A stretch of DNA of 64,000 bases from Psilocybe cubensis. Taxonomy: Eukaryota. The position numbers and the translations under genes are program-made. The notes beneath the pieces were generated by a model, which saw nothing but the letters and a program-made list of their open reading frames with translations, had not been told where the DNA came from and made no database searches. Positions 5,882 to 37,681 of the stretch are shown here, in pieces. Numbering within the stretch: the first letter of the stretch is position 1; each line of letters starts with the position of its first letter. The stretch spans positions 1,488,001 to 1,552,000 of the forward strand of contig CM039000.1 of assembly GCA_017499595.2 (NCBI GenBank). Direction: 5' to 3'.

Positions 5882-8760
5882 TATTATACATTTAAGATAA
5901 CTAGTTATATAGGAATTTGTTATCTTACCTTACATCTTTGAAATCATTTCATTAAGTTACCTTATTATTTCAATAGAGTGCTTGCAGTAGTACTGTTTTA
6001 TTTTATTACATACACCTGGTGGTTTTTTAATCTTATTAGTTTCATTGCTAGCAGAGCTTATTTTATTTTATTAAATCACTAATTTATTTCATTGTAGTGT
6101 GCTTTTATTAGAATTTATTCATTTTATTGTGGTATGCTTTCATTAGTGTCAATTCAATTTATTTCTGTACACTTTTATTAAAAATTGATTCCATTGTAGT
6201 ATATTTTCATTAACATTAATTGATTTTATTGTGATGTAGTGTTAATGTAAATTTTAAGTTCACCTGGATTTTACTTGATGGATTCAAGGTTTTAATCAAT
6301 TTGGTGTGTTTTTCATAAGTTTTCTCAAGTGCAAGTAAAGGTAGATATATATGGAGATTTTGGAAATGTGTTTTAAAGAAGTTAATCTAAAAAAAACATT
6401 TGTTTGTAATTTATATGTTTGAATTACATACCTAAAGCTTGGTATTTAGAGTAGCAATTTGATAGCTGGTTAGACTAATGGACAGACTTAATAGACGGAA
6501 CTGACAAATGAAACTGACAGACAGAACTGATGGACGGAACTGACAGACAGATTTAACAGACAGAACTAATGGACAGATGAGTAGTTAAACTGAACTGACT
6601 AAAGATTTAAACAAACTGATTGCTTTAGAAAGAAATACTGAATTTATAGTGATTCAATACTCTTTTTAACAGACAAGCAGAGTTTAGGTAGTATAAGTAT
6701 ATTGCAAAAAATAACTAGCAATTACAGCTTTTGAGTAAGTTTGGGGTGCTATTGAAAAAGAAAACTTAGCTACTGCCTAAATTTTCTGAGCCTTTATATA
6801 CTTTTTCCTATGCTTACATAATCACAATAGCAATTTCTATATAAGAATAGGCTGACTAAACTCTAAACCTTATTACCAATCCATTTCTATTGTTTTGGCT
6901 AATTTTGGCAGAATAAGTAAGCACCAGGTGGTGATTTATAAGTATTTCTATTGTATTCACTAAGCGCCAAGCAGAAGATTACTAATATGTATCATTATTA
7001 TTAGTTAATACAATATTCAACAATGTTGCCTTGATAACACATTAATTAGGCTGTATTGATTATCTATTTTTAGATTTGAGGCTATATGCTGTCTGATTGC
7101 TGCTCCCATGGCTGTGCTGGGTACTGATTATGCTTGTGGTCCATTAATCATATCTGATTTGGGTGCAGTTGTTATGTGACCATGCATAATTTTATCTTTG
7201 CAGATAACATATCTTTCCCAACAAGGTTGACTTAAGGTATTCTGTAAGTTTTGCCTGTTTTGTTATTGTTGGTTGGTGCAAGGAATATTATATTTTTATT
7301 CAAAACATTTTGCATGTCTTACAGTGGTTTTATCATAAATTTATTTTATTTAACTGGTATAATTAATTTTATCTATGATTAGGCAAGAATCTAGCACAAT
7401 TTTTGGTTTAGGAACTTAGACTAAATATATTAAAATTAAGGCTAACAGCCATTCCATTAAGGCTTTATCTCTACTCCTTCTTTTGGCTTTTAGCTCTATA
7501 AATAATGCTCATCGTATGCTACTTTTATGCATTGCTGGCAATGGATTGGGCACTTTTGGGAGCATTTCTGGACCATTTCTCCTAGTGTTTTTTAATAGTC
7601 CTATAGTTTTAATATGCTCTAATCCAAATCTGAAATCAAAATTGCAATATCATTGTTTATTATTATGTAATTAAGCATATAATGTTTTATTTCCCTTTAT
7701 TTCAAAGATATTTAATGCATATATGCTACTGTTTAGAGCAGATTTACATATTTATATATACTGAAAATGATCAATCTGGTTTACAATAAAATATACAAAA
7801 TCTGGGAAGGATGAGGGATAGTATCCTTCAATCTTGGAATTTGATCAAGATTAAAGGCTTTAAAAATTAGTATAATAAGCACCTAGTTAATTCTAGCTAG
7901 GCCTGAATTTATCTGATCAGGAAGGCATTTATACAAGGGGTAGGAGGAGGAGTACGATGAATATTCTAGTTCAATAGGTTCTACTACTCTAATTGAGCTG
8001 AAACTTGGCATCTATTTTATCTAATATAAATTAAAAATAATGAAATAACCCCTGGAGGGTACTATTAAAGGTGTACTTTTTGACCAAAATATTGTACATT
8101 TAATTGCACAATAATGAGTAAAGATATTGCAATTTTAATTTTAGATTTAGATTAGAACACATTAAAACTATAGGACTACTAAAAAACACTAAGAGGAATA
8201 GTCTAGAAATGTCTCCAAAAGTGCCTAATCTATTGCCAGCAATATACAAAAATAGCATATGATGAGCATTATTTATAGAGCTAAGGGCCAAGGGAAGGGA
8301 TAGAGACAGGATAATGGAATAGTTATTAGCCTTAATTCTAATATATTTAAGTTTTTGAACCAAAAATAGTGCTAGATTCATGCTTAATCATAGATAAGAT
8401 TAATTATACTAGTTAAATAAAATAAATTTATAATAAAACCACACCACAATAAAATCAATTTTTAATAATGTACACCAAAATGAATTGAATTAACACTAAT
8501 AAAAGTGTACCACAATGAAATGAATAAATTCTAATGAAAGCACACTACAATGAAATAAGTTAGTAATTTAATAAAATAAAATAAGCTCTACTAGCAATGA
8601 AACAAATGAGGTTAAGAAATTGCTAGGTGTGTATAATAAAATGAAACAGTACTACTATAAGCACTCTATTAAAACAGTAAAGTAACTTAATGAAATAATT
8701 TCAAAGATGTAAGGTAAGATAACAAATTCCTATATAACTAGTTATCTTGGATGTATGACA
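5882..8760. repeat. Two inverted copies of a decayed LTR-like repeat (arms ~5882-6239 plus 7328-7675, and ~8100-8760)
   Basis: AAGATAACTAGTTATATAGGAATTTGTTATCTTACCTTACATCTTTGAAA near 5895 is reverse-complemented near 8700-8747. The right arm terminus reads TGTCATAC on the minus strand. A third partial copy lies at ~51720-51970. Confidence 0.75.
6240..7323 (-). mobile_element. Decayed solo LTR of the Gypsy family at 55674
   Basis: Colinear reverse complement of 55674-56903 with many transitions. TSD is GTAG/GTGG (4 bp), checked against the uninterrupted inverted arm near 8430-8460. Confidence 0.88.
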
Positions 8761-10032
8761 CCAAATGGAACCTACTAGTGAACCTCTTTGGTCTTTTCAG
8801 CCTTGCATTTGCTTAGCTTGTTTTTCAATGAGTTACACTCAGCAGTGAGTTTCTGCATTTCCCACTTGAGTAACTAAACCTCCTTTTCTACATTTTTCAG
8901 CATTTGCTTGGCTATATCTTTTCCTGTTCTAGCTATTTTGCACTACTTGGCTGCACTGTGTGCATGATTTTGAGCCTCATTTTGGGCAGCAATGGCTTTA
9001 CTGCAAGCAGTGGCATATTTCTGTACCTGTTTTTTCACCTACCCTACCCACGTTACTCGGTTAATTACCCGACCAATCCAAATGGGTACAAGCCCATTAT
9101 TTAGCAAGCAATCCTCTTTGTTACCTTACTCGTGAATAGTTCAATTGTTAATTCTGCCCTTTGTCCTACAATTATGCCTGCCCGGTGACTCCAATCCCGA
9201 CTGCCCCGACTGTCACATTGACTCTATCTCGGTAAGTTCCATAAACTGTATAGTACCTCTACGTGTGCCGCAGTCCTTCCATATCCGTACAATATGGTTG
9301 ATTTTCCGCCACGTTGACCACTCGCCCACCGCCGACCTCCCGCCCCTCCCACCCTTCCCGCCCTTCTCTACTCCCGCCCTCCTCTACTCCTGCCCTCCCA
9401 CCCTCCTCTACTCCCACCCTCCCACCTCCTCTACTCCCGCCTGCTTCCCCTTTCACTCTCGCTCTCGCTCCCCTTCACTCTCGGCCTTTGTCTTCACCGT
9501 TTCCCTTGCCGTCTCCCTTATTGTTACTCTTACCCACCTCAACCATCGCTCTGGCCCTTACCCCTCTACCCGCGCCCTCTTACTCATGTCCCTTTCTGCC
9601 CTTCCTGCATAAGGCTTGCACTCTTACCCATCAGCGGGTCTGTTTGGAAAGCACGAAATTGGGAGCTGGCCTCCCTTCAACCAGTATCATTGCCTTCCCC
9701 AATACATTCTAAGCTCTATGTTCCCTATCACCACCCACCCATATTTGGTCCAGTATATCTTCTCTTTTACACCCTCTCCCCTCCCTCCCTTAGCACACTG
9801 GTCCCCCTCTGAAGACTGCGCTGCCACTGTCGCTCCGGTTCCGCACATAGGGTGATATCAATCTCCGTTAGTTTGAGCGCCCTCGGCAAATATGTCAGTT
9901 TCCATCAGCGCCCATCACATCTATTACATTGCTTTCATAATGACAGTACGTATTCTCAATTGGTACCTTTCCTTCCTTATATTGACTGGCCCTTTTAGTT
10001 CTTATCTTGTTCCGCTACAAAATCTCAAGACC

Positions 10033-13000
10033 ATGCCCAAATTGACAGGCTTATCGAAGGGCATTGCTATCCCTTATGGAGCTTCAAGAACCCGCGGACA
10101 TGGCAAGAGAAAGCATACAGTTGCGAACAAGTCTTTACGCCAGATTGAAAAGGAGAAAGAGGCGCAAGCATACGAAATTTCAGGTGAGTTGACCTTTGCA
10201 AGTTTGCATTGCCACAGTAATGTTGATTAAAATTTTTATTAATCAAGTACTCAGTTTTACTGAGCGGCAACGTCTGCTCTGGGCTGACCGGTTGCAGTCC
10301 GCGCATGACTCAGCTATGAATGTGGATGTCAACAAACCTACAGAAGACAGTGATTGGGAGGACGAGATGGAGGAAGGCTTGCGCCGTCCACCTCCCGGAG
10401 AAAAAGGGTTGCTGCAGAGCCATGCCGGGGGAGAGGCCGTTATGGAGGACATGATGGCTGCGTTGACACCTAAGTGAGTTCTTTACTGAATATCTTTCCT
10501 TTTTTGACACTTTTGCATAGCAAACGGTACGACTTACGGACACGGCGGAAGCGCATTCAACAACGGATCAATGCTTGGCAAAAGCAAGTGCCCCTTTTAG
10601 CCGCGCGATTTCTCGAGTGGAAGCACAATGATGGTGACTTTCCTTCTCCGTCGGAAGAAAAGCATAGCTGGAGCATCCAGGTAGTGTCATTTTCAGGTGC
10701 ATGGCAATAGCAATTCCCTGAGGGTTCATCGCTTAACCAAGACCATCCGATAGTATTTGGTGACCAATCTTTCCAACATCTTCCTGACATTTCGTACACG
10801 AACAAAACTCTCGTAAGGCACGGTTTCATAGGAGCAGCACCCGAAAAACCCACTATCGCATTTTCATTGGAGATGTTGGCAATTTATCGGCAATTACGTC
10901 GTGTGTGCCCACGGTTCAGCCTAGATGCACTAGCACGCGCACTGTGTTACATCCATCAGGTTAGTGTCCCAAAGCCTTATCCGTCAATCTACTCACCTGT
11001 ATCCAGCTTCCCTGCCAGCACAATTTGAGTGATCACTTGAGCTCTGCCTACGACTGCTACCTTGAAATTGACCGCCATATTTGCGAATGGCAACGTAATG
11101 CTCTTGGACGCTCGCCACGTTGGGAATGCAAGCATGTTTGCGCCCCGTGTCTGTATAAGACACAGGATAAGGCTCCCCTCAAGTACAGCATGTTGGCTGC
11201 CATGGATGGCAACAACTCCCTCAAAATTGTCGACACCCTCTTTTGCTCGGAGACCGTACGAGCCGATGACAGGGTTTCAACATCGTGGAAGTGGCTCACA
11301 CCGGAGGAGGCTGACGTGTTTAAAGATGAAGTCAATAAGAAGGTGCGTAATACATTTTCTAGACTAAGTTCTGTCTGACGTCATACAACAAAACACCTGA
11401 CGAAGGTCCATTGGCTTTGCACAATACTGCCGCCTCAACCGCTAGCGCGATGCCGTCTGCGACCCAACCCCCTCCCAACCTCAATGACAATGCAACACCG
11501 CCTCTGATCTCACTCTCTCTGGCCCTCAATGACAACATGGTTCCTGATAGTGATGACATTGACATTCCATGGCTCAACATTACCGAGCTGGACGAACTTG
11601 CCAAATGCGTAAATACCTGTGTTGAACGTTGGCGCAATGCAGGTCCGGAAGCACAAAAGAAAATGTTTTCATTATTCGCCATTGCTGGAATCTTCTTGAT
11701 TGTATGTCACCATGGTCATGTATTGGTAATGTGCGATATGATCAGAAGTGGTGAATTGTCAGTGTCCTCATTTCTATTTTAATCCACAATCACTGATCCA
11801 TTTTCACCAGAATGAAATATTCCCTTGCCGTCGTCGATCGCCTTATCCAGTTGTACGGTTCCGATATCTGCGTGGGCTATGATATTATGTGCGCTGAAGA
11901 TCGAAGTTTGTGATTGGTTATAAACTATATGTAATCCAACAAACACAAACCCCAGGGAAAGAGTGGTCCAGACTGGATAGGACAAAACCTTCTCCTAAGT
12001 TTCTTAAGGGAGGACGCTGCCTAGGATTTAAGTAGATTAGGATGGTGTGGATTGTGAAGGGTAACGAAAGCAAAATAGTAAGAAGAGGATAACCGGGTCG
12101 TCTGGGTACGATAGTAAATAAGCCTTCCGAAAATGGGATGGAACCGTGGAATTGGATGGCGGGTGTATATGGAAAGCGTGAAGAAGATGCGTAGAATGCG
12201 TATGAGAAATCAATAAATGTGAATCTTAGAGGGGTTGTCTGAAGTGAGTGGGGAATGTTCCGAGGGGAGATGAGGAGATGACTAGGAGTTGGAATGTCGT
12301 TAAATGGCTGAATCTTGATAAGCGGATGGTAAAGGCAAAAGTGTCCTTAAATTGACAATCTTTCTGACGCTTGGAATGAAGCTATACGTCGCAGGAGTAT
12401 CGACTAAATCGAGGGTGAAAGACTAAGTCTGTCTCAAATAAAATCACTCCAGATGAGTTGACGGAGGGAAAGGATGTCTTGAATACACTCCTAACGGCGA
12501 TGGTTGGAAGGTGTAGAAGGAGTAGGAGCGGTGACGGATTGAATGGAGGAGGGGAAGTAGGGAAGTACTGGATGTCTGGATAGAAGTTGGATATTCAACG
12601 CTGAGAAGAAGAGGCGTTGGATGAGAAGGATGACTGGTCTCGGATGAAATCCTCTCTTAATGGAAAGCGAGATGACTTCAGATGAATGGAAGTAAACTTG
12701 GTCTCGACGGAGGGTGGAACTGATGACTGAATTGGACTTGGGTTTGGGCTTGGCTTGAACTTGAACTTGGAATTGAAATGAATTGATGTGGATTGACTTG
12801 AAATTGACTTGACTTGGATGAAAATTGACTTGCTTTGAAGAAAGTGGGGACTGGGTGTAACTTTCCTGTCATTTCGTGTAATTCTACTACAGCTTTTATA
12901 CTAAAAGCTACGTGAACGAAATACCAATCTGAGCTACTGAAAACCGAGTCATATACTGTACAACGTGTCAAGAATGAGGCTACGCAAGTGTAACAATAAG

Positions 13001-15186
13001 CAAGAACAATAAGACATGTCAATATCGACACGACGACAGATAAGAAATGAATAGGATGAGTAAGAAAGAAGTGTATGACGAAGGTGAATGGTAATACAGA
13101 TTAGATAAAAGAAGCAAGGATGAGTCAGAAAGCATAGAAGATTGGTAAGACAAAGACAATAAAAGCGCAACAGACAATAGAAAAGATATAAATAAACACA
13201 AAAGGATGAGTAAGACAAACCAAAAATAAGTTGGAATGAGTAATCCGCAGCCTGACGCTGAGTAAGACCATTGAATTGATAAAAATAAAGTTGACAGTCC
13301 GGCTGTGCAAGGCAGTGTAGAAAGCTGTGCAGTTTGATGGTTGACTGATCCGTTGCATAGCCTTGATGATCCGACGAAGTGACATGATCTGGAATAACGT
13401 GGCTTCCATGTGACAAGTGTTGATAAGATAAGATGTGTGGATGACTTATGGAAAGAATGACTGCTTGGGTTGAGGGCGTTGTGTGTAGATCCAAAATGAA
13501 CATCTCATCTCCAATCAGGATTGGGGTATGATAGCGCCTTTACCAAAACGTTGTCGCATAGTGTCCTTGGCCCAAAGAAGGTTATGTTTTGGCTCGATGG
13601 CGTGGTTCCATCATTCCATGGGCACGCACATAATCGTGGCTGTCAGTTGGATTGGCATCCAATGTACCGGGAGGGAGTGGGGTTAGAGGATTTTGAGGAA
13701 TGCAAACGCACTTTTGGACGCTCAAATGAACTCGCTTCTGTTACGCGGCTTGCTTCCTCCTATCACTGTGTTTAGCATATCGATGAGCACTTCTCTTTCC
13801 ACGACGAAGATAAGCATGCCGGATCAGGTAGGTAACTAAGTTTAGTGCTCCACCTGAGATTAATTATGTGATCAGGAAATTTCATCTATCAAAACTATTG
13901 ACAGGCTCTCGAGCGAATTGACACCAAGTCTCACTATCTCGAGGCACTGGCGTCGCGCCTCAACACCGGCCCCAACAATTACAAGAGTTACTTACAAGCT
14001 GAACGTGCCCACCTCCTGTCATTGAAGTCGGAGCCTCCCGAAGTTCAAAGGGCCCTTGATTATATGGAGAAACTCAAGGAGTTTGAGCCGGTGAAGTAAT
14101 TGAATTACCTATTCCTGTTTTTTCTCTAACCCATTTTAGGAGGGAATATGATGCCGCAAAAAGGGACTATGACAATCTTGACTGGTCTGTTCGCTATCAG
14201 ACTCCGGCCATTGCAGCCATTAGGCAAAGGCACCAAACCTTGTTTAGAAAGTTGGAGCTCAAAGAACAGAGCTTGCTTATTTATGAAGAGGAACATGGCA
14301 TTACAGAAAGGTGGGATCCCAACTCCGAGTCGTACAAGCGGGGCGAGAAGCTTCTGCAAGAACGAAATTATCGCCATGCGGTTGACAACCTAGAGCGTCT
14401 CGTAGTGCAGAGATTATTCGAACTTATGAAGCTAAGGATGAACGGTGTTGGTAAGAGCTTTCTTTCATTTCAATAAATGTCACTTCTAATTGTGTATTAG
14501 GTTACAAGTTACGCGAGAAAATCAGTAAGGCACTACACGCAAGATCGGTAGCCATTCAGACAGCTTTGAAGCAATACAACACGGCGGCTTCCCTTCTTAT
14601 ACCCCCTCGCGAACCCTTGACATGGGCAACTGTTGTTCAGGCAGCCACTGTTGCCGACTTTGATCTTCTTCGTGATACCCGGAATGATATTTGTCAATTT
14701 CCTTGGACAGAACCATCGCGGCGTGAAGCTACTAATTTTTATTTCCGTATCAAGAGGGCCCGCAAAGAAATTGTACATCTTAATGTAGAGATCACCCGTT
14801 TGCTCACCTTCTTGTACAACACCCACGTTGATTACCAGCGAGCCATATGCAATAACAATGTTACAGATCTGCCGCTTGCATCATACCTATCTCGGGAATG
14901 GAACCGTCAAAACCGTATTGCTGAAGAGATCGTCAATCAGTTAGTGCAAACCTCTCGCCTTCATGGGTTCACCGGATCTTTGAAGATTGGGTCTCGGGTT
15001 GGTAGAGATCCTGAGTTGTGTGAAGGCATCCCGCCTCCTGCCTGGGCATCGCTTCTCATTGATCAACCCATGCCAATGACGGCGGCGCAGGAGTATTCAG
15101 CTGAAGACGAGATTGCCAGGGAGGTAGAACATGTAGATCTGAATCTTGTAGTAGAACTCATTGAACAAATCAGTATGTCGTCGTAG
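10033..15186 (+). pseudogene. KDZ transposase with CxC1-like domain, ~10 exons, disrupted
   Basis: Motifs LVRHGFIGAAPEKPTIAFSLEML, CAPCLY, AMDGNNSLK, GIFLIVCHHGHVL..DMIRSGE, GYDIMCAF, FHGHAHNRGCQL.WHP.YREGVGLEDFEEC. GT-AG introns at about 10184-10247, 10474-10520, 10697-10753, 10960-11006, 11343-~11390, 11758-11810, 13828-13875, 14096-14139, 14451-14500. In-frame stops near 13773 and 13898. Confidence 0.88.
11895..13533 (-). mobile_element. Solo LTR (1639 bp, probably Gypsy) inserted in the KDZ transposase
   Basis: GCGC TSD at 11891-94 and 13534-37. Removal restores GAT ATT ATG TGC GCC TTT (DIMCAF). Minus-strand termini are TATCATAC (decayed TGTCATAC)...TCTTCA. Confidence 0.88.
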
Positions 15187-16145
15187 CTGTGAATAGTTTC
15201 TGTAATTGGGACCTTTTGTAAATTGAATATATCTCATCTGTCATGTCTTTTGTGAACGTGAACAAATGATTGAATCGAAGGAGTGTTTCAATTTTTGTGC
15301 ATGTGCAGTACCAATCTGGGCGCTTAACTCGAGGTATTGGTTTGGACTGAAAATGACGCCAGACTACTCTTTTGGCTAACTGCATAATGGTATACATATT
15401 GCATCCATATAAAACTCTTAATATCAACATGTACTTCAGTCTTCCAATCACCACTTAGTTAGAACCAATAAAACAAGAGTGCTGTTTCAAAGTCTTAAGC
15501 AAACTACATATTGTGTTGTTTGAAACTATTCAACATGACTCGTTCAACGAAAACTTGTTAATGGTCAGTGGATAGTGAACTAAACGCCCATTCAAGATCA
15601 CAAAAATGGACAACAATATGAACCTAAAAGTAACTTGCATGTTATTTACCATAGTCAACCATGTAAAGTATAAAAACTGCACAATCTCCTTCGCAGAAAC
15701 GAAAGATTAACCAGTCGTTGTACTAAGAAACCGACAAATTCAAGTCAACGTGGCTGGCCTGCGTTCATTTGTACAACAGCATTGCGCAAAATTACTTCTT
15801 AAGACTAATACAATATAATGCTTTATGTATGTACACACTTTAAGCTATAAATCAAGCTGTATTCCAGAAAAGAAGTATTGTTGATACAAGTAGTGAACAA
15901 TTTACTAAATACCATAGGCCTAAAAATAGACGGCAATGTCCCGATCTGGTTGACAGATTAAGATCTCGTAGCAGGGTTGCGTACGTTTGGACTCATTACA
16001 TACATGAGGCCAGCCACATGAATTCTATCACTATTCGGAGATATGCGAATATTCATAAGTTCAATAAAGATGGCACACCGTCAAACAGCCATGAGAACAC
16101 CCCAACTTTCAGATTTTCCCCCTCATCATTTTGACTACCCTATAA

Positions 16146-17690
16146 TGCATTCGCCAAACGCAAATCAGCCTCCGTACATACTGCTCAAAAGCATTGAACG
16201 ACTGTTACGTCTCAGCAGCACTAAGGGCCAGGTTCCTCACTGGCGCGACATCAAATTCAGCGCGCTAGGACTGTACCAGCTACGTAGCTGGCTTGGAACG
16301 TACACTGCTGCACCGAATCTCTTTAACACCAATAAAAGTTGCTTCCGTGCCAGTGACATTGCGTTCTTTGCAGCAGGAGCGTCAACAGATGATTGTCACG
16401 ACCACGGCATCCAACATTTTTACTCGGATTGTGCCCCGTTCCGCAACGAGTTGACCTTCAAGATTGGCTACAGCACGGAGCCATTAAAGAAGGAGCGGAA
16501 CAAGTTGGAGGACGAAATTTAGGTTTTAACTCTGGGACATTGTATGTTTCAGCAGTGAAATTTATTTATATGCTATTGTTAACAACTTTGTATTACAGGC
16601 TGCGTTTCTTGACCGTCTGACCGGTGGTACGACCATGATAATGCGCCATGGCGGCACTGTTGTACCCGGCTCTTGCTTCCTTCCTGAATTTCTAAAAGTC
16701 CGCGTCTATCTCCCTCCTGCATTCATTGCCCACAACCCTGATTTACATCCGGCCATCTGCGATATTGTACAGCACTTTATTGAAACAGTAGCCGTTCGTA
16801 CTGCTGAAAAATGGTCTCCTCGTGCCAAGAGGACCTTGAATTACTCTATGACCCAGAAGGGAAGGCCCGTTCCAAATCCTTTTCCGTCTGTAAGCATTCC
16901 TCTGCCGGAGGAAGGGGCTGCCTGCTATATGTTCTTTGGCGGTCCGAGCGTTCATGATTCCATTTACCACTCCTCGCCCCCCCCTCCGATTGTTTCCATT
17001 TCCCATAATCGCAGTACCTCTCCGTCGCCATCGAATTCCTCTGATATGTATGCCGTCAAAAGCCTTTCCGACAGCGACTGCACCATTCTAGGCCTTCAGG
17101 AAGACATTAGTGCCTTACAAAAGGCAAACGAGGCCCTTTGTATTGAGCTGCAAGCTGCGTATGACCGATTGCACATCCTCGAGAAGCAGCTTATTGAAGC
17201 TCGGACCATCGTTCCAACTCATGTCCCCAGCACTCCCGCGCGTGCCTTCAATACATACTCTGGTATCTCTAAAACTCCTACCCATGTCCCAAAAACTCCA
17301 ACCCGTGACGTGAAAAAGGTGACCGCTCGCAGGAAGACTCCGTTGCGCAGTGCTTTTGAAACGCCATCCCATACTCACGCCTCCCCTGCCCCGGCCGCCT
17401 CACTGAGGTCACCATTTTCTGGGGCAGGGAGCTTTTGGGTCTTGTCTCCTTCAATTTCTACGGCTGATCTTTTTGACGATCCAACCGATTCATTTCTTAT
17501 GCTCCCTGTTTGCTTAGAGCAGCACAACATGTCTTCCCTTTTGCCCAAAATTCAGGAAATAGCTGCCTACCACCCAACAGAGGTGCACTTTGACGCATTA
17601 GTCAACTTGGGGCTGTTGAACAAGATTGCTCAGAAGATTGCCGCAATCATGGCAATTGATGCTTCTGTCTTGTCAAAGCAGGATCTGTGA
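16146..17690 (+). pseudogene. Cargo gene A of the KDZ element, unknown function; two exons, apparent frameshift and stop near the end of exon 1
   Basis: ORFs 16043-16522 and 16635-17690 joined by intron GTATGT...TTACAG (16542-16598). Globular-looking N-half, then Ser/Pro linker, coiled coil, TP-rich segment and helical C-terminus. Confidence 0.65.
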
Positions 17691-17983
17691 GTAGGTAATG
17701 AATTTTTTTGTAATTTTTTGTCCCTTCCTATGTTTTCCAATGACCCTTTTTTTTGTATACATTTTTGTAGGTCCGTTTAGGCTGTATGGCCAACAACCCT
17801 TTTGATTCGCACATCCATCCCTGACCTATGCCGTTCACCGAGTTATTCCTTTTTATTTTTTACAAAATTTACACTGTCAGCCCTTTCTAGGCTCCGTCGT
17901 TGGTATTGTAGCCTTATATACCTGGGTTTTACTGCACTTGAGATTTGCCCCACTTCTGTCTGTCCATACACGTACTTTTTGCA

Positions 17984-19395
17984 ATGTCTACCTTTCTCTC
18001 GTCGTCTACAATTCAATCTGTTTCTACCTGCCGTATTCGGCACACGAAAAGCAAGCCTGCTGCCCCAATGCCTGCTCAACTGAAGAAAGAGAAGGCTGCC
18101 CAGCGCAAGCAACTCAAGCGCTATTCAAGAGGCCGTAGACGAGTGGTTTTTGGCTACAAAAGCCAAGGCTAAGGAGCTAGCAGAACGGTTTGATCGAAAA
18201 CCGCGCTATTTCCTTGACCTATTTTTTCACGGCGGGGCACGCATGATCCACCAGCACGACAAGATTAATCTGTACAATGCGTTTATGAGCGTCAAGGCCC
18301 AACACCTTTGAGAATGTAAGCAACATTTCATTTTGCTATTAGATATTGGCTAATACTTGATGGCTAGCTGGAGATACAAAAAACCTTATTGACATGCAGA
18401 GCAACTTGAATAGGGAATACCATACTCTCAGTGAAGCTGAACGAGAGGAGATTGTTAACAAATATGAAACCAATAAGGCAGATAGTTGTATTGCACATAT
18501 TGCTCCCCGGGGACGAGTGCAGGACTTCTCAAATACTATTTGCAACATGATTGCACTTGTAAGTTTACTATTTAATTTAATGCACAATTCTCTACTAAAA
18601 AGCCCAGCTCAAAAGTTTGAAAACTCGCATAGGCGCCGAAGGTTTTTTTTGCATTGTACAAAACTCGCCTTCTTATCATATGGCACCCCAATGGCACTTT
18701 ACGTTTGAATCCCTTGAGAAGTATATGAAAGTGGCCACAAAATCATGGGCCACACACGACGTGGGTACTCGCATTGAGGCGTTCGCCATTGCAGGATGCG
18801 ACCCTATTAGTAATTGCTCGGATATTTTTTAGACATTCCAACTTGCTGACTTACACACCAGATCTTCTCACTTCTTCAAAGAAAAAGGCCGAGTACTACA
18901 AAACCAAAATCAGGGAGCTTATCGCTTCAAAGCTCCGTATGTATACATTATTACCTGACATTGATCTAAAACTGACATCTGTTACCACAAGGTGATATCA
19001 CAGGAAACCAAAATGCTGTAATGCAATACAGCCGCTATGATGAAGACATTGTCATGCGTTATGGAGTAGTTCTAGAAAGGTGGACTTACGAAAAACTCAT
19101 CAACCCTAGCGCCCTTAGCACATCCCTGCCATCTCTCAAAATGTTGCACGAGGCACTTAAGAAAGGTGACTGTAAGTTTGTTAAGTTGACAAGCGAACAG
19201 AAGAAGGAGTGGGAAAAGGCCTACATGGAACGTGTTCAAAAGGGTGAAGTAGAATGTTGTAAACGTAAAAAACGAAGTGACGCAGGTGTGCGCCGAAAGA
19301 CCAAGCGGGTAAGAAGCAATGACCAGGTCTCCTCCGATGATGATAAGGAAAATGACAGTGACGACGGGGACAACAGTGCGGATGCTAATAATTAG
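17984..19395 (+). pseudogene. Cargo gene B of the KDZ element, helical/HMG-like basic protein, 5 exons
   Basis: Introns 18316-18367, 18559-18607, 18810-18861, 18937-18991. Segments KINLYNAFMSVKA..EYHTLSEAEREEI, YDEDIVMRYGVVLERWT..NPSAL, RKKRSDAGVRRK, acidic tail. One frameshift (~18120) and one stop (~18309). Confidence 0.7.
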
Positions 19396-21003
19396 TTCTA
19401 CAGCCATTTCGGCCCAATGCTATATTAATACAATGGGCAGAAACTTGCCTATTTTGTCTCGATGAAATTACCAGAAAGAAGTCTAACCCCAAAAAAGCTA
19501 CGAAATGCACCTGGAATGGGAAGGTAAGTTCAACCGCATGAAACATAAAAACATACCACAGATGGGTATAACATTGTCGAACTTCCGAAAAGAACCGGCG
19601 TCTCTTACGGAAAGGTACCATATTAGAGTGCAAGTGCCAACCGCTATCCAAAGATATGGGGATAGTTGAAACAAAACATAAAAAAGGAAACAAAAGGTGA
19701 CTTAAAATAGAATTACACACATACTATCCGACTGTCGGCTACAAGAATGACCAACGGAATTTCAATTGCTCTGGTGGCGGGGTTAGAACACCAGGCTTAA
19801 CCAATTTGGTCCAAAATGCGCGTACATCACGTGTTAGGGCCATTGTCGGCGGCCGTGTTGGAGCACCAGTCCAGCCACTGCTGGAGGTGTCCAAATGCTG
19901 GTGTGCTCAGAGGATTACACCTAGAATATGGGCGGGCAACAATGTGTACAGTAAAACAGTTGTCAGAATATAAGTCTGTAAGTTAAGAGAAAATGTGCGC
20001 ACCAGTAAGATTAGTGGAAATAATGACAGTCGTTGACCCTCCTCCAAATGCATATTGTCCGTACATTCTAAGAGGAGATGAGCACCAATGGTGGGCAGGG
20101 CGACAGGCTGGTGGGACACAAGAGACATTATGCCATCCAGGTGCCACCTGGCAGAAAAAGAAGTTGAGGAGCATATGGTTTGCTGGGGCGATGCGGCAGA
20201 TAGGAGAGCGCGAGGTGATGAAGGGCTGTAGCAAAGGAAAGCTGACAGAGAGGGCCGGGAGGGAAGGGCAAGAGAGGGGAAGGACGGGAGTAGAGAAGGG
20301 CGGGAGGGGCGGGAGGGGCGGGAGGTCGGCGGAGGGCAAGTGGTCAATGTGGCAGAAAATCAACCATATTATACGGATATGGAAGGACTGCGGCACACGT
20401 AGAGGTACTATACAGTTTATGGAACTTACCGAGATAGAGTCAGTGTGACAGTCAGGGCAGTTGGGATTGGAGTCGCCGGGCAGGCATAATTGTAGGACAA
20501 AGGGCAGAATTAACAATTGAACTATTCACGAGTAAGGTAACAAAGAGGATTGCTTGCTAAATAACAGGCTTGTACCCATTTGGATTGGTCGGGTAATTAA
20601 CCGAGTAACGTGGGTAGGGTAGGTGGTCTTTTTAGCAACTTTTTCTGGTTATGTTCCTTTATCTAGGTCACAACCTTATTAACCTTGCCAAAAATGGCTT
20701 TCTGGAATTTAAAGGTGTGGTTTTAAGAGGAGATAGTAATATGATGTTGGAGATTGATTGCTTCAGAGGCTATAGGGGATAATGGTGGCAATGGCAGGTC
20801 TGCTTTAGATACTGGGTGTCTTTTCTTGGTACTGGATATAGATCTTTTCATATGAAATGGATTGTTCTTGTTAACAGAGCCTGTCTAGACTATTCCAAAG
20901 GTCAGTTTAAAATGCATGCTAAAAGACCAATTTACTTATCTCTCTACTTCTTAGTCTTTAGATGCACTGACTTTGATGGATTTTCTGGTCATTTATACAT
21001 AGG

Positions 21004-21749
21004 TGTGTGGAGAGTGGAGACAGGCTAGACACGGAGCCCGGCGAAACCTGACGACATCGGTCTGACATCTGAATACGTGAGGAGCCGCCACGAGCGACAG
21101 AGGATCCGACACAAGTGCGAGCCAAGGCGGAAAGTGCGCGTCTAAAAATAGGCGCGGTAGCAATAATTGGAGTACGCGACGCAGAACGCGCTCTTGTGGA
21201 CAAAACTCACGCGTAGCGGCCTGGCTTGTCCCGCGTTGGAATATAGTATGACGGCCTAAAGGTAGAGGCGCGGAGGAGTGGCCGCATGGAAGACATGAAC
21301 GTGCGACGGGAAAGAGGAACAAACTGAAAAGGGGTAAATTAGAAAAACCTGTATAAATACGAGGAAAGTAGATACGAGAAGGGCAGCGAATATCAGGACC
21401 AACTTATTCACTAAAATATCACCCCTAGAGCCTCTCGTCGAGCTTGGAACACACTCGTTTCGCTCCGAAACTAACGTACGTATAGCCATATTGGATTCGT
21501 CGTCTTTGTCACCATCTCATATAACCGCTATACCGTCGTCTCTCGCTTTCGTTTGATTATCTCCGCGTCTCGTCAACTCTCGTTTTTGTGCCAATACCTT
21601 TGCCATCCTTTGGCCTCGCCATACGCGCCTCAAAATCGTTTCCCGTCGTTTCACTTCTTACAAATTCCCAAACCACTCACTTCATACTTGCTGTTCTGTT
21701 TGGCGGACGCCACAGCATACTGTACCCACTCCATTTCTAACACCACACA
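21004..21749 (+). repeat. Probable solo LTR of another family
   Basis: Inverted termini TGTGTGG...CCACACA, TATAAATA at ~21352, CpG-rich against CpG-poor flanks. No TSD seen. Confidence 0.5.
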
Positions 21750-29914: not shown

Positions 29915-30247
29915 TGTTAAAACTGCTCTCTATGTCTCCCTCACTTTGCTATCTTATCAGATTAGATTACTTTCTTCTTATCTTCATTTGCTCTCCAGAC
30001 CATTCTAGACACATGATATTTATCAGTCCATAGACTGGTCTGGACCGGACCAGAGTAGACCTAGGTAGACCAGAGTACTTGAGTCTACACAGTATATAGT
30101 CACTCTAGTTTACATCCTGAAGTCCCCAGTTACTCACTTCGGACTTCAGGTTAGTTTGTTAGCACTTTGCTCAATTCACCCAGTTACTCACTTCGGACTT
30201 CAGGTCGCCGAGTAGCTCACACTGCCCCGAGCTCGCCTGCTTCAACA
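29915..30247 (+). repeat. Copia family 1 isolated LTR C (333 bp)
   Basis: Reverse complement of 29543-29875, separated from it by 39 bp. Confidence 0.95.
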
Positions 30248-31305
30248 TATTCTAGGACACTGCTACTAGTAACTGTGCTAAACAGCTTGTTGCTTGTTAG
30301 ATTATCTTCAAAGGCTGCCCTCTGTTCATATAAGCAGCCAGCAAGTTGCAGGACATCACTTTCTGCACAAGGTACTAGAAATAGGGTCACCCTCATATCT
30401 TGTATAGTGCACTTGCTGTGAGCTGCCCTTGGTACTCCAGTCCCCACAAGAATAAAAAACACTGCGCTGTTACAGGCTGCTGCAAAGGTAATCCTAATGC
30501 AGACCCACTAATTCTCTCTATACCCAAGGGGAAGGAGTGTCTGTATATTCTTTGCTTTTCCAAAGATTTTTTCTAATACACACTTCTTAGAATAGTTTGT
30601 TTCAATTTCACAAAGTTTGCACTTAGCATAAAAACTATCCTGGAATGTTGTAACTAGATGTTTGACAATTTCTTTATCCAAATGCCTCTATGGTGTTTTC
30701 AGAAGTCCATACTGTATCCTTTACCACTACAAAAAAAGGTGATGATATTATTGATGCACTACTGCACCCTGTATCAATGTTTATAGTGCACACACCTGAA
30801 CCCAATGCATATCCTCATATTATGGCCTATATGTCTAACTGCTTGAGTGTATACTAACTGTCTATGTATTGCAATCTTATTTATTATTATAATGTGCTTA
30901 TTCTGACTCTTTTTTTTTATGGCAAGTTATACAACCTTCTGAACATTTATTCTGACAATAGTAAGTTTACCTCTCCTTAATCAATTACTCATGCATGCAG
31001 CAGATATTTGGCTTGACTTTGTTTTTAGACTGTTTATCAACAAAGTTGCACAAGCCTTAAACAAAAAATATTTATTTAACACTGCTATTATCTTGACTAT
31101 CAAAAACCAACAAGAACCATTTCTATTCAAATGCCCACCTATCACATATCCAAGCCTAGTTCTATTCCCAGAAGAAGACTCAATCTCAACTACTTGAGTT
31201 GCTTCTGCCACCTTTGAGTTTTAACTACTATAACTAGAGCAGTCAGAGTCTGAATCTCTGGCACTTCACCATAACCTTTAACACATATGAAACAATACCT
31301 ACCTT

Positions 31306-34300
31306 TGTTAAAACTGCTCTCTATGTCTCCCTCACTTTGCTATCTTATCAGATTAGATTACTTTCTTTTTATCTTCATTTGCTCTCCAGACCATTCTAGA
31401 CACATGATATTTATCAGTCCATAGACTGGTCTGGACCGGACCAGAGTAGACCTAGGTAGACCAGAGTACTTGAGTCTGCACAGTATATAGTTACTCTAGT
31501 TTACATCCTGAAGTCCCCAGTTACTCACTTTGGACTTCAGGTTAGTTTGTTAGCACTTTGCTCAATTCACCCAGTCACTCACTCAGACGCTTTGTGCTCG
31601 CTTATCCCTGCGCCCTACGTTGTATAATTAGGTCGCCGAGTAGCTCACACTGCTCCGAGCTCGCCTGCTTCAACAGGTTATGGGCCCCGCGCTCTAAGCG
31701 CTCCAATTCCGTGTTTTGCGAACCAAGTTGCTTTCTGCATAGTTTTCACAAAACGGTCATTTTTGTCTTTTTTGCTTTTTATCCTCTACCAGGCCCGGCC
31801 ATACATTGCCGCTGCTAGTAGGGTTGAACGAGCACGCCTTACGCGACTTGTTAACCTCGGTTGAGCGGGCCCCCGTTGCCTAATCCCCGAGTTATTTCTA
31901 GTTAAAAGTAACCCTTTTAAATTAGGCTAGTTTAACTTCGTCTTTTCCACTTGCGTTCGCATCGCACCCCGAGCTCCGGGTAACGCCTAGTTCGTTTCCA
32001 CACATCATTACACATCCCCACACATTACTACCAACACTCGTATCCATCCGCTTACGCGTTCCTTCGCAATTCGCAATAATGACTTCTGATCCCCAAATCA
32101 CTCCATTGAACTCAACCAACTACAACACCTGGGCAGGCCAGATGACCGCCTATTTCCAGTCTAAAGGGATATGGCGCATTGTCAGCGGTGCTAGAGCACA
32201 GCCAACGCTCTCAAACAAGCCCACTGCTCAGGAGGAAGCTTTGCTTGAAACCTACTTTGAGCAGAGAGACAAAGCATGTGGTTTGATCTATCTTAGTTTG
32301 GAGAATGATCAGAGGGTTCATGTGAAAGCCATCAAGGATGATCCTATCAAGATGTAGGATGCCCTTGCCACTGTACATCAGCAAAAGCGCCCTGGCAACC
32401 GCTTTAATGCATATGATGATCTGTTCTCCATCCGAAAGGAGGAAGGTGAAAACCTTCAAACCCTGATCAATAGAGTTGAGCAAGCCATGTTGCTAATTCA
32501 GCAGCTTCGCCCTAAGGGGTTTGATCTGGCTAAGCTTGATGAAGAGCTTGCTTCGCTTGCTCTGGTCAGGGCACTCCCAGAGGAGTACAGTTCATTTGCA
32601 TCCTTACTTCTCCTTTTGGACAAGTTAGACAAGGCTACAATTCACCAAGCCTTTGTCACAGAGGACATACAGCAATGTCGCCGCGCTTCAGAGTTGCCTG
32701 CACTCGCCACCGCGTTCCAGACCGCTCCAGCCCCTTCTGCATCCAAGCCCAAGTGCGCATTTTGTGATATGACCAATCATGCAATGGACAAGTGTCACAA
32801 GTTTATTGCTGCGCAAAAGGATGCGAAGGAGCGTGTCAAAGCGGCTCGCAAAGGCAATAGAGCGCACAAGGCCTCAGAGGCATCCAGTGAGGAAAAAGAG
32901 TCCAAGGACATGGAATTTGCTGGAAATGCAAGTGCTCTTAATACCGATGTTCCCTCTTCCATTTCACCCCAAACTAATGACGATTGGATTGCAGACACAG
33001 GGGCGACTTCTCATATGATGCCCCATCGCAATTGGGTTAGAAATTACACCCCCCTTCGCATTCCAATCCGATTAGCAGATGAACGAGTTATTTATTCTGC
33101 AGGGGTGGGCACTGTGTTCTTTGAACCAGTTGTAAATGGAATAAAGTCAAGAGGCGTCGAGTTAACTAGAGTTTTACATGTAACAGATCTCCGAAACAAT
33201 CTACTGTCTGTTCTATACCTCACAAAGCACAAAGGCTTCAAAATCACTATTGATGCTAATCTGATGGAGTTTCATCGCAAAGGAGCTTGTCTCTTCTCTG
33301 CAGATGTTAGTACATCAAACTGCGCTTTATTGAATGGTTATACAGTTCCTATTTCGGAGTCTGCCTTTATTTCCTCCAATTCCACTCTACCCCTTGATAT
33401 CAGTCTCTGGCATTGTTGGTTTGCTCATCATAGCTACACTGACATCCAGAAGATGATTAGAGAGGGTATGGTCACCGGACTCAAGCTGAATTCACAGCAA
33501 CAGCCTGACCCCATTTGTGAACCTTGCCTTGCAGGCAAGATGCATTCCAACCCATTTCCTTCTTCACCCAGCATGTCAGATGTTCCGCTTGCGCTTATCT
33601 TCTCAGATCTGAAAGGTCCTATCTCGCCCCCTACTCCTGAAGGCTATCGCTACTGGATAACCTTTATTGATGACCATACAAAGAGTAGAGCTGCTGTGCT
33701 TCTTAAGCGCAAAAGCGATGCATTCAGTGCGTTTCAAACGTACAAAGCATGGGCTGAGAACAAATTAGGCTTTAAGATCAAAGCGCTGCAGGATGACAAA
33801 GCTGGTGAATACATGTCAAATGCTTTCATCAAATTCACTGACCAGTGTGGCATTGAGCTTCGTCATACAACGCGAAATCGCCCACAACAGAACGGAGTTG
33901 CAGAGCGTGCAAATCGCACCATGGCAGAACATGTTACTTCCATACTCAATGAGGCTCGTGTTCCACCTTCGTTTTGGGGTCGCTGTGTTGCAGCATATAT
34001 GCATGTATGGAATCGTGTTCCTACAGCTCCTCTACCGGACAAGACTCCGTATGAAAGCTGGAACAAGCGCAAACCTGATGTTAGTCATTTGAGGGTTTGG
34101 GGTTGCCTTGTATATGTTTATGTTCAGGGAGATAAGCGCAAATCGTTGCAGCCTCATATGGAGAAGTGTATCTTTGTTGGGTATCCTACTGGGTACAAGG
34201 GCTGGGAGTTTTACAACCCAGTCACCAAAAGGTTCATTATCTCTGAGAGAGCTGATTTCGACGAAAGGTGCTTCCCTGGGGTGTCCACTGGCCCTATGCC

Positions 34301-36623
34301 AAAGTTTGACCTTCTTCCCACTTCTTCTGCAAGTGCACCACCTCCCAATTCAGGGGGGGACTCTAATGGCTTCAATTTTGATAATGATGAGGATGACTCT
34401 ACTCCAATTCCTGTCATTGAGCCAGAGGTGCCTATTGCACCTCCTGAACAGCCAGCTGAACCGCCACAGCCTGAGGCCGTTCCTGCACCTCCTCCTAAGC
34501 CTGCACGCCGCCAGCGTGCTCCAGTTGATCCTGCAACGTTGAGACGCACTACTCGCGTTCCTAAGCAGCCTGGTGAATGGTGGAAAGTCTCACATGATCC
34601 TGAACCACCTGAAGCCAATGATCCTGGATTTGAAGAGGTAGAGTTTGCTGGGCTTGTTTCAAGCGCAGATCCGCGCACATTCAAACAGGCAATGAAAGCG
34701 CCTGATGCGCACATGTGGGAAGAGGCTGCTAACACAGAATTCAATCTGTTGCAGCACAATCAAACTTGGGAGCGAGTTGAGCTCCCTCCGGGTCAAAAGG
34801 CAATTGGCTGTGGTTGGGTCTTTAAAATCAAGCGAAATGCAGATGGCAGTATAGAGCGTTACAAGGCTCGTATTGTTGCCAAGGGTTACAGTCAGCGCCC
34901 TGGCATTAATTACCATGAGGTCTTTGCTCCTACTTTCCGCCCTGCTACTTTCCGCTTGATTGTGGCTCTGGCCGCCATTGGAGACTTGAAGTTGCGCTCT
35001 GTTGATATTACAGCTGCTTTCACTAAAGGTGACCTAGACGAGGAGATTTACATGTTACAACCTGAAGGATTTCACCAAGGTGGTCCTAACATGGTTTTGA
35101 AGCTCAAAAAGTCGCTCTATGGTCTTAAGCAGTCTGCACGTCAATGGAACCTCAAGTTGCATGAGGCATTGTCAGATATGGGGTTCAAGCGTATAGAATC
35201 AGATCGCTCTGTCTACATCTATTCAGATGGAGATGTGAAGATTATTGTTCCCATTTACATTGATGACATTACCTTTGCTTCCAAATCGGACGCTGCCATA
35301 GATAGAGCTGTTAAGCAGCTAGCTGCGCATTTTGAACTCCGTGATCTGGGTCCTACACAGTATTTACTTGGTGTTGCCATTGAGCGAGATATGGCTACTA
35401 AAACCATTTCCTTGCATCAGCGTCAGTATATCCTTGATATGCTTGATACATATGGCATGACTGACTCTAATCCGGTCAAAACACCTATGGCTGTGGGCAC
35501 TGTTCTCTCCAAGGCAGATGGACCTCAGAATGGAGATGAGGTGGAATTTATGCGAAATGTTCCCTACCTCAATGCAGTTGGCTCCTTGCAGTATCTAGCC
35601 ACCATGACCCGTCCTGACATTGCTTTTACTGTGTCCTATCTGGCACGCTTCAACTCCAATCCTGGGCCTAAGCATTGGGCTGCGGTTAAACACTTATTCC
35701 GCTACCTCAGAGGCACTCTGGATTACAAGTTGACTTATTCTGGCGCTGTGGGCCATGATAACTTTGTCACCTACACTGATGCTGCACATGGTGATTGTGT
35801 AGATACTGGACGCTCTACGAGTGGTTATTTGACCGTTCTAGCTGGAGGTGCTATTGGCTGGGCAAGCAAACTCCAAACTGTTGTAACACTGTCTACTACA
35901 GAGGCAGAGTACATTGCTGCAGTGGAGGCAGCCAAGGAGATTGTGTGGATGCGCAATATCCTTGAGGAGTTTGGCTACACAGTTACTGAGCCTTCTGTGC
36001 TGCATATGGACAACCAGTCATCTATCAGTGTTTCCAAGAATCCAGAGCACCATGGACGGATGAAGCACCTTGATTTGCGCTATTATTGGCTTAGGGATGC
36101 TGTTGGTGTTGGAAAGATTTCTCCTTTTTATATTCCTACTGATCAGCAAGCTGCTGATATTCTTACCAAACCCCTCTCACCTCCTAAAGTGGACTTTTGT
36201 AGAGATAAAATGGGTCTCAAACTTTAATCTTTCTTTCTCTGTTTTGCTTTATTTTTCTTTGTTCTGGAGACTTGTCAGAACAGGGGGGAGTGTTAAAACT
36301 GCTCTCTATGTCTCCCTCACTTTGCTATCTTATCAGATTAGATTACTTTCTTCTTATCTTCATTTGCTCTCCAGACCATTCTAGACACATGATATTTATC
36401 AGTCCATAGACTGGTCTGGACCGGACCAGAGTAGACCTAGGTAGACCAGAGTACTTGAGTCTACACAGTATATAGTCACTCTAGTTTACATCCTGAAGTC
36501 CCCAGTTACTCACTTCGGACTTCAGGTTAGTTTGTTAGCACTTTGCTCAATTCACCCAGTTACTCACTTCGGACTTCAGGTCGCCGAGTAGCTCACACTG
36601 CCCCGAGCTCGCCTGCTTCAACA
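31306..36623 (+). mobile_element. Copia family 1 copy D (5' LTR 31306-31675, 370 bp; 3' LTR 36291-36623, 333 bp)
   Basis: LTRs, PBS at 31676, PPT AGGGGGGAG, gag-pol. Confidence 0.95.
32079..36227 (+). pseudogene. Copia gag-pol of copy D; TGG>TAG in gag at 32355-57, remainder open (1246 aa from 32487)
   Basis: In-frame stop where copy B has Trp; all pol motifs present. Confidence 0.92.
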
Positions 36624-37681
36624 TATTCTAGGACACTGCTACTAGTAACTGTGCTAAACAGCTTGTTGCTTGTTAGATTATCTTCAAAGGCTGCCCTCTG
36701 TTCATATAAGCAGCCAGCAAGTTGCAGGACATCACTTTCTGCACAAGGTACTAGAAATAGGGTCACCCTCATATCTTGTATAGTGCACTTGCTGTGAGCT
36801 GCCCTTGGTACTCCAGTCCCCACAAGAATAAAAAACACTGCGCTGTTACAGGCTGCTGCAAAGGTAATCCTAATGCAGACCCACTAATTCTCTCTATACC
36901 CAAGGGGAAGGAGTGTCTGTATATTCTTTGCTTTTCCAAAGATTTTTTCTAATACACACTTCTTAGAATAGTTTGTTTCAATTTCACAAAGTTTGCACTT
37001 AGCATAAAAACTATCCTGGAATGTTGTAACTAGATGTTTGACAATTTCTTTATCCAAATGCCTCTATGGTGTTTTCAGAAGTCCATACTGTATCCTTTAC
37101 CACTACAAAAAAAGGTGATGATATTATTGATGCACTACTGCACCCTGTATCAATGTTTATAGTGCACACACCTGAACCCAATGCATATCCTCATATTATG
37201 GCCTATATGTCTAACTGCTTGAGTGTATACTAACTGTCTATGTATTGCAATCTTATTTATTATTATAATGTGCTTATTCTGACTCTTTTTTTTTATGGCA
37301 AGTTATACAACCTTCTGAACATTTATTCTGACAATAGTAAGTTTACCTCTCCTTAATCAATTACTCATGCATGCAGCAGATATTTGGCTTGACTTTGTTT
37401 TTAGACTGTTTATCAACAAAGTTGCACAAGCCTTAAACAAAAAATATTTATTTAACACTGCTATTATCTTGACTATCAAAAACCAACAAGAACCATTTCT
37501 ATTCAAATGCCCACCTATCACATATCCAAGCCTAGTTCTATTCCCAGAAGAAGACTCAATCTCAACTACTTGAGTTGCTTCTGCCACCTTTGAGTTTTAA
37601 CTACTATAACTAGAGCAGTCAGAGTCTGAATCTCTGGCACTTCACCATAACCTTTAACACATATGAAACAATACCTACCTT

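Follow-up and report, generated by a model that had tools for sequence, protein, structure and literature searches.

A decayed KDZ transposon, most likely of Kyakuja type, with its empty site and two candidate accessory genes in Psilocybe cubensis

The window, i.e. the whole stretch of DNA analysed here, comprises 64,000 nucleotides (nt) of Psilocybe cubensis (contig CM039000.1, positions 1,488,001 to 1,552,000). Its segment 9036-20625 is bounded by long inverted repeats and holds three genes in one orientation. The question raised by this locus is what the segment is: whether it arrived by transposition, to which group of DNA transposons it belongs, whether it can still move, and whether the two genes next to the transposase are part of the element or were picked up by chance. 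With a probability of about 0.85 the segment is one decayed copy of a KDZ cut-and-paste transposon, most likely of Kyakuja type, whose working form would encode three proteins. All positions are those of the window, and the coordinates of the features are collected in Table 1.

The element is 11,590 bp long. Its termini read directly as CACCT...AGGTG, as given in a preliminary description made from the letters of the window; the outer ends are CACCTACCC... on the left and ...GGGTAGGTG on the right. A repeat search of the window returned inverted arms of 364 nt that are 95% complementary and stand 10,862 nt apart. The blastn alignment of one arm with the reverse complement of the other is 370 columns long; it has three gaps and 17 mismatches, of which 15 are transitions. 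Arms of 341 bp had been described before; the coordinates of the outer ends were right, and each arm continues inward for about 23 nt more. Short repeats of the TCCCGCCCT type lie at the inner edge of the left arm, a mirrored array of the 9-mer is found near the right end (20298-20325), and these subterminal repeats are candidate binding sites of the transposase. The seven bases outside the element on either side match at six of seven positions. The insertion site is AT-rich, unique sequence, and no second copy of the inverted ends or of the element was found by blastn within the window.

Whether the segment was inserted can be read from genomes that lack it. Public sequencing runs were queried with window 8236-18235; four runs of one study contain 0.91-0.92 of the sampled words and the others small shares. 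Four runs were aligned to window 7500-21700: X1, one of the runs that contain the element, X5, X6 and X12. X6 and X12 carry the same species label, and X12 consists of raw reads. No RNA run was among those matching the query, which is uninformative on expression. One X6 contig of 612 nt (325 nt on the left flank, 234 nt on the right) and 12 X12 raw reads (11 start points) connect position 9035 to the right flank. The 16 letters that stand between the flanks in this empty allele are identical to window 20633-20648 and are followed by a 1-nt T indel; the true junction is therefore 9035|20633. The difference between the occupied and the empty allele is thus 9036-20632, or 11,597 bp (11,590 + 7), in X6 and in X12. 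This proves the 7-bp target-site duplication of the preliminary description for this copy, the length being taken from one insertion.

In the empty allele the sequence is G, seven T, AGCAAC; in the occupied one the left flank is GTTTTTT and the right flank GTCTTTT plus a further T. The single-base difference between the two flanks, noticed before, is real; the C is absent from the empty allele, and the C of the right copy is therefore a later T>C change or a polymorphism. An earlier argument, that joining a minus-strand frame across the removed element speaks for a duplication of 3n+1 bases, is uninformative: removal of 0 or of 2-10 bases always leaves an open frame of 38-45 amino acids (aa) across the junction. 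Four open reading frames (ORFs) in the flanks of the insertion site were scanned against Pfam and gave no match.

It is highly unlikely that there was no insertion at all and that short repeats led to deletion of the segment from the other strains. A 7-bp direct repeat could in principle mediate such a deletion, but the missing segment is, to the base, a transposase-encoding unit bounded by inverted repeats. Moreover, the empty alleles of X6 and X12 keep exactly one 7-mer without a footprint, which is the classical picture of a never-occupied site.

The insertion is polymorphic, being present in some strains and cleanly absent from others of the same species label. Outside the nested repeat described below, X6 shows no depth over the element and X12 a depth of 0-1 per strand. 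In the holder X1 the element lies on error-free contigs at a depth of 56-57, next to flank contigs at 57-64 and a collapsed inverted-repeat contig at 100. No second copy is evident in this run and the element appears to be single-copy in the holder genome, which fits these depths, although contig depth is no formal copy number and to that extent counts against the reading. A second copy, about 95% identical, is found in X5, where the inner parts of the inverted ends are joined to the transposase and the nested repeat is lacking. The preliminary description had looked to other copies for linkage of the ends to the transposase and to other strains for empty sites; the first is seen in X5, the second in X6 and X12.

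Some side observations concern these strains. The X5 copy lacks 868 bp at 17276-18143, i.e. the end of gene A and the start of gene B (see below); X5 gave no reads over the unique flanks of the window locus, and its copy may sit elsewhere. At window 20649 the empty alleles of X6 and X12 are shorter by one T, and with 6 differences in 325 nt and 7 in 234 nt their flanks diverge from the window by about 2-3%. The strains under this species label are therefore fairly diverged.

Judged by its coding matches, the element is a member of the KDZ superfamily of DNA transposons. Searches by tblastn with P0001, P0002, P0003, P0004, P0005 and P0007 outline one colinear gene at about 10322-15186, corresponding to P0001 residues ~11-911; the full-length KDZ relatives P0001, P0002 and P0007 have 880-942 aa. 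The Pfam profile PF18758 (KDZ) matches two exon pieces, 11363-11782 (E-value 2e-14, profile positions 42-101) and 13521-13772 (3.1e-23, profile positions 127-205). With the inverted ends and the empty site, these matches bear out the earlier identification of a KDZ transposon with both ends readable. Of the 75 longer proteins retrieved with the C-terminal exon, 74 carry PF18758; the best relatives come from Crassisporium, Pholiota, Agrocybe and Mycena and are 47-57% identical across the exon. A CxC3 match in the N-terminal region has an E-value of 0.0053, and neither CxC4 nor SWIM was matched at E <= 0.01 in Pfam scans of the window exons or of P0001, P0002, P0003 and P0007. Frame-keeping GT-AG introns were identified at seven of nine exon junctions and an eighth (13829/13875) by eye; the junction of the nested insert lay outside this check.

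The gene is interrupted. Its KDZ core is split at 11894/11895, at about residue 430 of the relatives, by a 1,639-bp insert. An in-frame TAG stands at 13773 where relatives carry Q, and an in-frame TGA at 13899 where they carry H, both at positions conserved in the relatives. A TAG at 10708 was considered as a third stop and rejected, as it lies within a likely 57-nt GT-AG intron.

The letters GCGC stand on either side of the insert. The stretch 11891-13533 is skipped by the X5 copy, 4 letters being ambiguous. In X12 the raw reads reach a depth of ~495-804 per strand over the insert, compared with 8-12 over the unique left flank, and loose read ends mark its borders (640 reads at 11895 and 552 at 13533). 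These observations identify the insert as a nested repeat of high copy number that made a 4-bp duplication. Five of its ORFs were scanned against Pfam and gave no match. It has a strong GC skew and no visible inverted or TG..CA ends, and it is present in tens of copies in other strains, yet nowhere else in the window.

Downstream of the transposase lie two further genes, named A and B here. Gene A was traced by tblastn to P0077. Against this relative it has a TAG at ~16523, where P0077 has Q, and then a 1-nt frameshift. Residues 38-386 of the gene A ORF recur unchanged in P0076, a public protein of 351 aa; the stop and the frameshift explain why this gene model starts downstream of the lesion. 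In a representative protein library gene A has 275 relatives at E <= 0.001, 130 at <= 1e-10 and 7 at <= 1e-30. Pfam gave no match on gene A, neither in the window ORFs nor in six of the ten relatives scanned. The other relatives had HMG-box matches in a B-like part (two of the ten, fused gene models) and a weak coiled-coil-type match (one of the ten), all below the cut-off.

Gene B was traced exon by exon. Its exons match the B exons of the metagenome loci L001, L002, L004, L005, L007 and L009 and of the proteins P0243 and P0247, and its exon 1 contains a frameshift at ~18103-18106. A search with the window exon alone found no relatives; a profile of the five B exon translations matched 23 proteins. 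Pfam scans of the single exons of gene B gave nothing credible, and HMG-box matches were obtained only on the fused Mycena models, below the cut-off (P0128, 0.0055; P0200, 8.4e-4).

No recognisable TET/JBP gene had been reported for the element, and this stands: Tet_JBP was not matched in the 28 ORFs scanned in or overlapping it, a set that does not cover the six frames exhaustively. The three genes leave spacers of ~920, 880 and 865 bp. Each of these is shorter than about 930 bp, and there would thus be no room for a TET/JBP gene in the element.

The copy is dead: all three genes are disabled, and it can supply none of the three proteins. With the nested repeat and the stops and frameshifts in all three genes, the element is no longer mobile on its own. 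The preliminary description was correct about three co-oriented genes as anatomy; it had also let this copy define the termini, the duplication length and a three-gene module, but the copy is a fossil with lesions in each gene and no working reference. That the copy is intact, autonomous and currently active is scarcely credible. The polymorphism of the insertion between strains and the largely open exon frames with their frame-keeping GT-AG introns would agree with an active element, but the nested 1,639-bp repeat sits inside the KDZ core, the stops at 13773 and 13899 fall on conserved positions, gene A has a stop and a frameshift and gene B a frameshift, the arms of the inverted ends have diverged by 5%, and the holder genome shows single-copy depth.

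What the proteins of an intact copy may look like was approached through relatives. An AlphaFold2 model of the gene A relative P0077, built on 42 sequences, has a mean predicted local distance difference test (pLDDT) score of 77, with 290 of 499 residues at or above 90. The model combines an alpha/beta domain and a helix of 50 residues with a disordered linker rich in Ser, Pro and Thr and a helical bundle at the C terminus. A Foldseek search of A against PDB gave no match at E <= 0.001 (best 2.7), and a comparison of A with a protein atlas gave no match of at least 0.9. Protein A is thus predicted to be confidently folded, with no detectable relative among solved structures. The model of the gene B relative P0243 has a mean pLDDT of 75 and a folded core at residues 28-351. 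Its fold search against PDB likewise gave no match at E <= 0.001; the best matches were weak and fell on NRF1, GTF2I, MADS and an HMG-box-like domain. In the protein atlas B matched only unnamed clusters of Basidiomycota with the same weak fold themes. An HMG-like nature of B is weakly suggested by these results. Several KDZ elements were reportedly found by Iyer et al. in 2014 to encode additional proteins, including one with a divergent HMG domain. Gene B probably encodes that HMG protein.

Whether A and B belong to the element was examined in relatives. Metagenome contigs of the Joint Genome Institute (JGI) were scanned with an alignment of nine A sequences, and the 10 loci obtained were searched by tblastn with KDZ, A and B queries. 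Transposase, A and B follow each other in the same order and orientation in L001, L002 and L004. L003 has the transposase and then A, at the contig end; A is followed by B in L005, L007 and L009 and is alone in L006, L008 and L010. A KDZ gene lies upstream of A in four of the seven loci with at least 1.4 kb of upstream sequence, and B lies downstream of A in six of the seven with at least 1.5 kb downstream. In Crassisporium funariophilum one contig carries the closest A relative and the closest transposase under consecutive accessions, A and then the KDZ gene, in two copies with identical proteins (A, KAF8164964 and KAF8164967; transposase, KAF8164965 and KAF8164968). By their accessions, two contigs of Pluteus cervinus have one gene between the KDZ gene and B, with TFK59155 and TFK59157 on a 9,263-nt contig and TFK59430 and TFK59428 on an 11,112-nt contig, KDZ being named first in each pair. 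Gene models in which A and B are fused, in the order of the window, occur in two Mycena species and Hygrophoropsis (P0128, P0200 and P0211).

The recurrence of the transposase-A-B order and the fused models make A and B look like lineage-specific accessory genes rather than chance cargo; the preliminary description had spoken of a cargo transposon. Capture of two host genes carried along by chance is unlikely, as the order is shared by the window, L001, L002, L004, the two Pluteus contigs and the two Crassisporium copies, across transposases that are only 53-69% identical to that of the window. Contigs with A relatives are also often of element size (8-12 kb), and L005, where the transposase is lacking, belongs to the L004 family as a truncated copy that has lost the transposase side. 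In favour of capture, A contains no known transposition-related domain, it occurs without B in L008, and the genomic context is known for only a minority of its 275 relatives. Furthermore, A has no adjacent KDZ gene in three of the seven loci with enough upstream sequence (L005, L006 and L010), which counts against a fixed three-gene unit as well.

L004 is a complete relative of the element. Its inverted ends are ~870 nt long (553-1428 and 12530-13409), and its left terminus also starts with CACCTA. About 3 kb of L004 between gene B and the right inverted end (9512-12473) is missing from the sister copy L005; four ORFs of at least 120 aa in this part gave no Pfam match.

The place of the element among known KDZ systems can be judged from published descriptions. 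Until recently only Zisupton was well characterised (Kojima 2025, PMC12730594). Zisupton resembles the window element in its KDZ domain and in having inverted ends with a target duplication; it differs in its 8-bp duplication (Bohne et al. 2012, as cited in PMC12730594) and in an architecture that includes CxC4 and SWIM domains (PMC11343200), neither of which was matched here. The families Kyakuja-1_LB and Kyakuja-2_LB of Laccaria have 7-bp duplications, 5'-CA..TG-3' termini, no inverted ends and a TET/JBP gene, and Dileera (Zisupton-1_PGr) has an 8-bp duplication (Kojima 2025, PMC12730594). In Cryptococcus, KDZ elements measure ~9-11 kb; KDZ1, a mobile element of the Dileera clade, is 10,944 bp long with 236-bp inverted ends and an 8-bp duplication, and its region contains a gene for a CxC1+KDZ transposase, two further genes of unknown product, CNAG_00127 and CNAG_07313, as well as two annotated non-coding RNAs (Huang et al. 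2024, PMC11343200). KDZ2 and KDZ3 have inverted ends of 139-169 bp and duplications of 4-8 bp (10.1101/2025.05.19.654958); taken together, KDZ1-3 of Cryptococcus neoformans have inverted ends of 139-241 bp and a CxC1+KDZ transposase (PMC11343200, 10.1101/2025.05.19.654958). Inverted-end motifs of KDZ and Plavaka elements were characterised by manual curation in Marasmius oreades (Hiltunen et al. 2021, PMC8290104); these KDZ elements, of Dileera and Kyakuja, likewise come from Agaricales.

The general anatomy of a KDZ cut-and-paste element is present in the window, with defined ends, a target duplication and an empty site elsewhere. The 7-bp duplication and the CA..TG termini are those of Kyakuja, with which the element also shares the KDZ transposase and an Agaricomycete host (Kojima 2025), and on these grounds the element is rather probably of Kyakuja type. 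It departs from the 8 bp of Dileera, softly so, since KDZ2 and KDZ3 range over 4-8 bp.

Several points weigh against this reading. The Kyakuja label is drawn from just two characters, the duplication length and the termini, and in view of KDZ2 and KDZ3 a length of 7 bp is not exclusive to Kyakuja. The Laccaria Kyakuja families lack inverted ends and carry TET/JBP, whereas the window element has ends of 364 nt and A and B instead; in giant size, long inverted ends and two extra genes it is Cryptococcus KDZ1 that it resembles. A CxC1 match on 10711-11028 (7.8e-5, 23.2 bits) lies below the Pfam cut-off of 26.9, so that of the profiles proposed in the preliminary description KDZ was matched, on its two exon pieces, and CxC1 was not matched above threshold; close relatives score similarly, e.g. 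P0003 with 26.5 bits. The right end of L004 reads ...TAGGGC and not ...TAGGTG, and no target duplication was found in L004, the sole other complete relative.

Membership of the Dileera lineage, as in Cryptococcus KDZ1-3, with 7 bp lying within the range of that lineage, is possible but doubtful. The architecture of KDZ1 (10,944 bp, 236-bp ends, a CxC1+KDZ transposase and two unknown genes; PMC11343200) is matched, the 4-8-bp duplications of KDZ2 and KDZ3 (10.1101/2025.05.19.654958) would accommodate the 7 bp, the N-terminal region of the window transposase matches, below the cut-off, the CxC1 domain of KDZ1-3, and Kyakuja-1_LB and Kyakuja-2_LB lack inverted ends (PMC12730594). However, 8 bp is the length published for Zisupton-1_PGr and for KDZ1, and both the 7 bp and the CA..TG termini of Kyakuja are found here. 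The relatives of the window element come from Boletales, Polyporales, Russulales and Agaricales, and in the first three of these orders no TET-carrying KDZ lineage other than Kyakuja was found (Kojima 2025, PMC12730594), which is circumstantial. KDZ1-3 differ from the window copy in having been caught moving in the laboratory and in their duplications of 8 bp (KDZ1) or 4-8 bp; the window copy is dead and has 7 bp.

Under the preferred Kyakuja-type reading, the working form of the family would encode three co-oriented proteins between long inverted ends. The transposase would have an N-terminal CxC-like region and the KDZ domain. Protein A, of ~470 aa, would be folded in its N-terminal domain, continue in a long coiled coil and end in a small helical bundle; protein B, of ~400 aa, would be divergent HMG-like and probably DNA-binding, with a basic/acidic tail. 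By analogy with cut-and-paste transposases of the DDE/RNase H type, the transposase would recognise the CACCTA terminus and the TCCCGCCCT-type subterminal repeats, excise the element at its CA...TG ends and integrate it with a 7-bp stagger, whose repair would leave the 7-bp duplication. Speculatively, B may bend or synapse the long ends and A may act as a scaffold or regulator. Since its insertion this copy has received the nested high-copy repeat and the stops and frameshifts across all three genes.

How far the element is new depends on the feature considered. It had been proposed as a candidate for an undescribed system, with this copy defining the termini and the length of the duplication, but Kojima 2025 (PMC12730594) already gives 7 bp and CA..TG for Kyakuja, and KDZ end motifs had been characterised in Marasmius (Hiltunen et al. 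2021, PMC8290104). Nor is a three-gene system of this kind without precedent, as Huang et al. 2024 (PMC11343200) describe KDZ elements of 9-11 kb and KDZ1 with long ends and two extra genes. For KDZ elements the length of the duplication, the termini, the giant size, the long inverted ends and additional genes of unknown function have thus all been described before. Neither the combination of a 7-bp duplication with long inverted ends and the A-B pair nor a statement on protein A was found in the text examined of the cited KDZ papers; the supplements, Repbase or Iyer 2014 may contain them. At this locus a KDZ insertion of a mushroom-forming fungus is cleanly documented: its two ends, its empty site and the length of its duplication are established, and the last agrees with the 7 bp reported for Kyakuja in 2025. 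The copy itself is a fossil with no apparent functional consequence. The recurrence of the transposase-A-B order across Agaricales, Boletales and soil metagenome contigs goes beyond the published text examined and indicates a conserved pair of helper proteins, one of them with an unrecognised fold. Only tentatively can this be extended to a widespread Agaricomycete KDZ lineage in which transposition would need the transposase, the HMG-like B and A, and for which the window, L004, Crassisporium and Pluteus would be the first set defining the long ends, the CACCTA terminus and the three-gene unit.

Table 1. Features of the element and its insertion site (positions in the window)
Feature	Position	Strand	Basis or remark
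Target-site duplication, left copy GTTTTTT	9029..9035	.	Sequence; single copy in the X6/X12 empty allele
Left terminal inverted repeat, starts CACCTA	9036..9399	+	Complementary to 20262-20625
Subterminal short repeats: 9-mer TCCCGCCCT and 16/24-nt variants	9338..9441	+	Tandem Repeats Finder; inner edge of left inverted repeat
KDZ transposase pseudogene, ~9 exons	10322..15186	+	Colinear tblastn to KDZ proteins; Pfam PF18758
Nested 1,639-bp high-copy repeat	11895..13533	.	4-bp duplication GCGC at 11891-11894 and 13534-13537
Putative accessory gene A	16070..17690	+	tblastn to P0077; relatives 460-500 aa
Putative accessory gene B, possibly divergent HMG-like, 5 exons	17984..19395	+	Exon-by-exon match to relatives
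Right terminal inverted repeat, ends TAGGTG	20262..20625	-	Complementary to 9036-9399
Target-site duplication, right copy GTCTTTT	20626..20632	.	One T>C relative to the empty allele

Other repeats are present in the window. Left of the insertion site, window 7500-8447 is itself repeated, with a summed contig depth in X1 of ~1,400-2,000 against ~57 for unique sequence and a raw-read depth in X12 of 38-96 per strand; window 7399-7661 recurs at 51694-51956. To the right of the element, 29915-49420 is a tandem array with a spacing of 6,376 bp. It holds three near-identical ORFs of 1,289 aa (32358-36227, 38734-42603 and 45110-48979) with shared 300-nt repeats between them, and inverted partial copies of it lie at 21.8-29.6 kb and 54.1-55.7 kb. 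The array looks like head-to-tail long terminal repeat (LTR) retrotransposons that share LTRs. Finally, window 56410-56617 consists of a 13-nt tandem repeat with a unit close to TCAGTTCCATCCG in ~16 copies.

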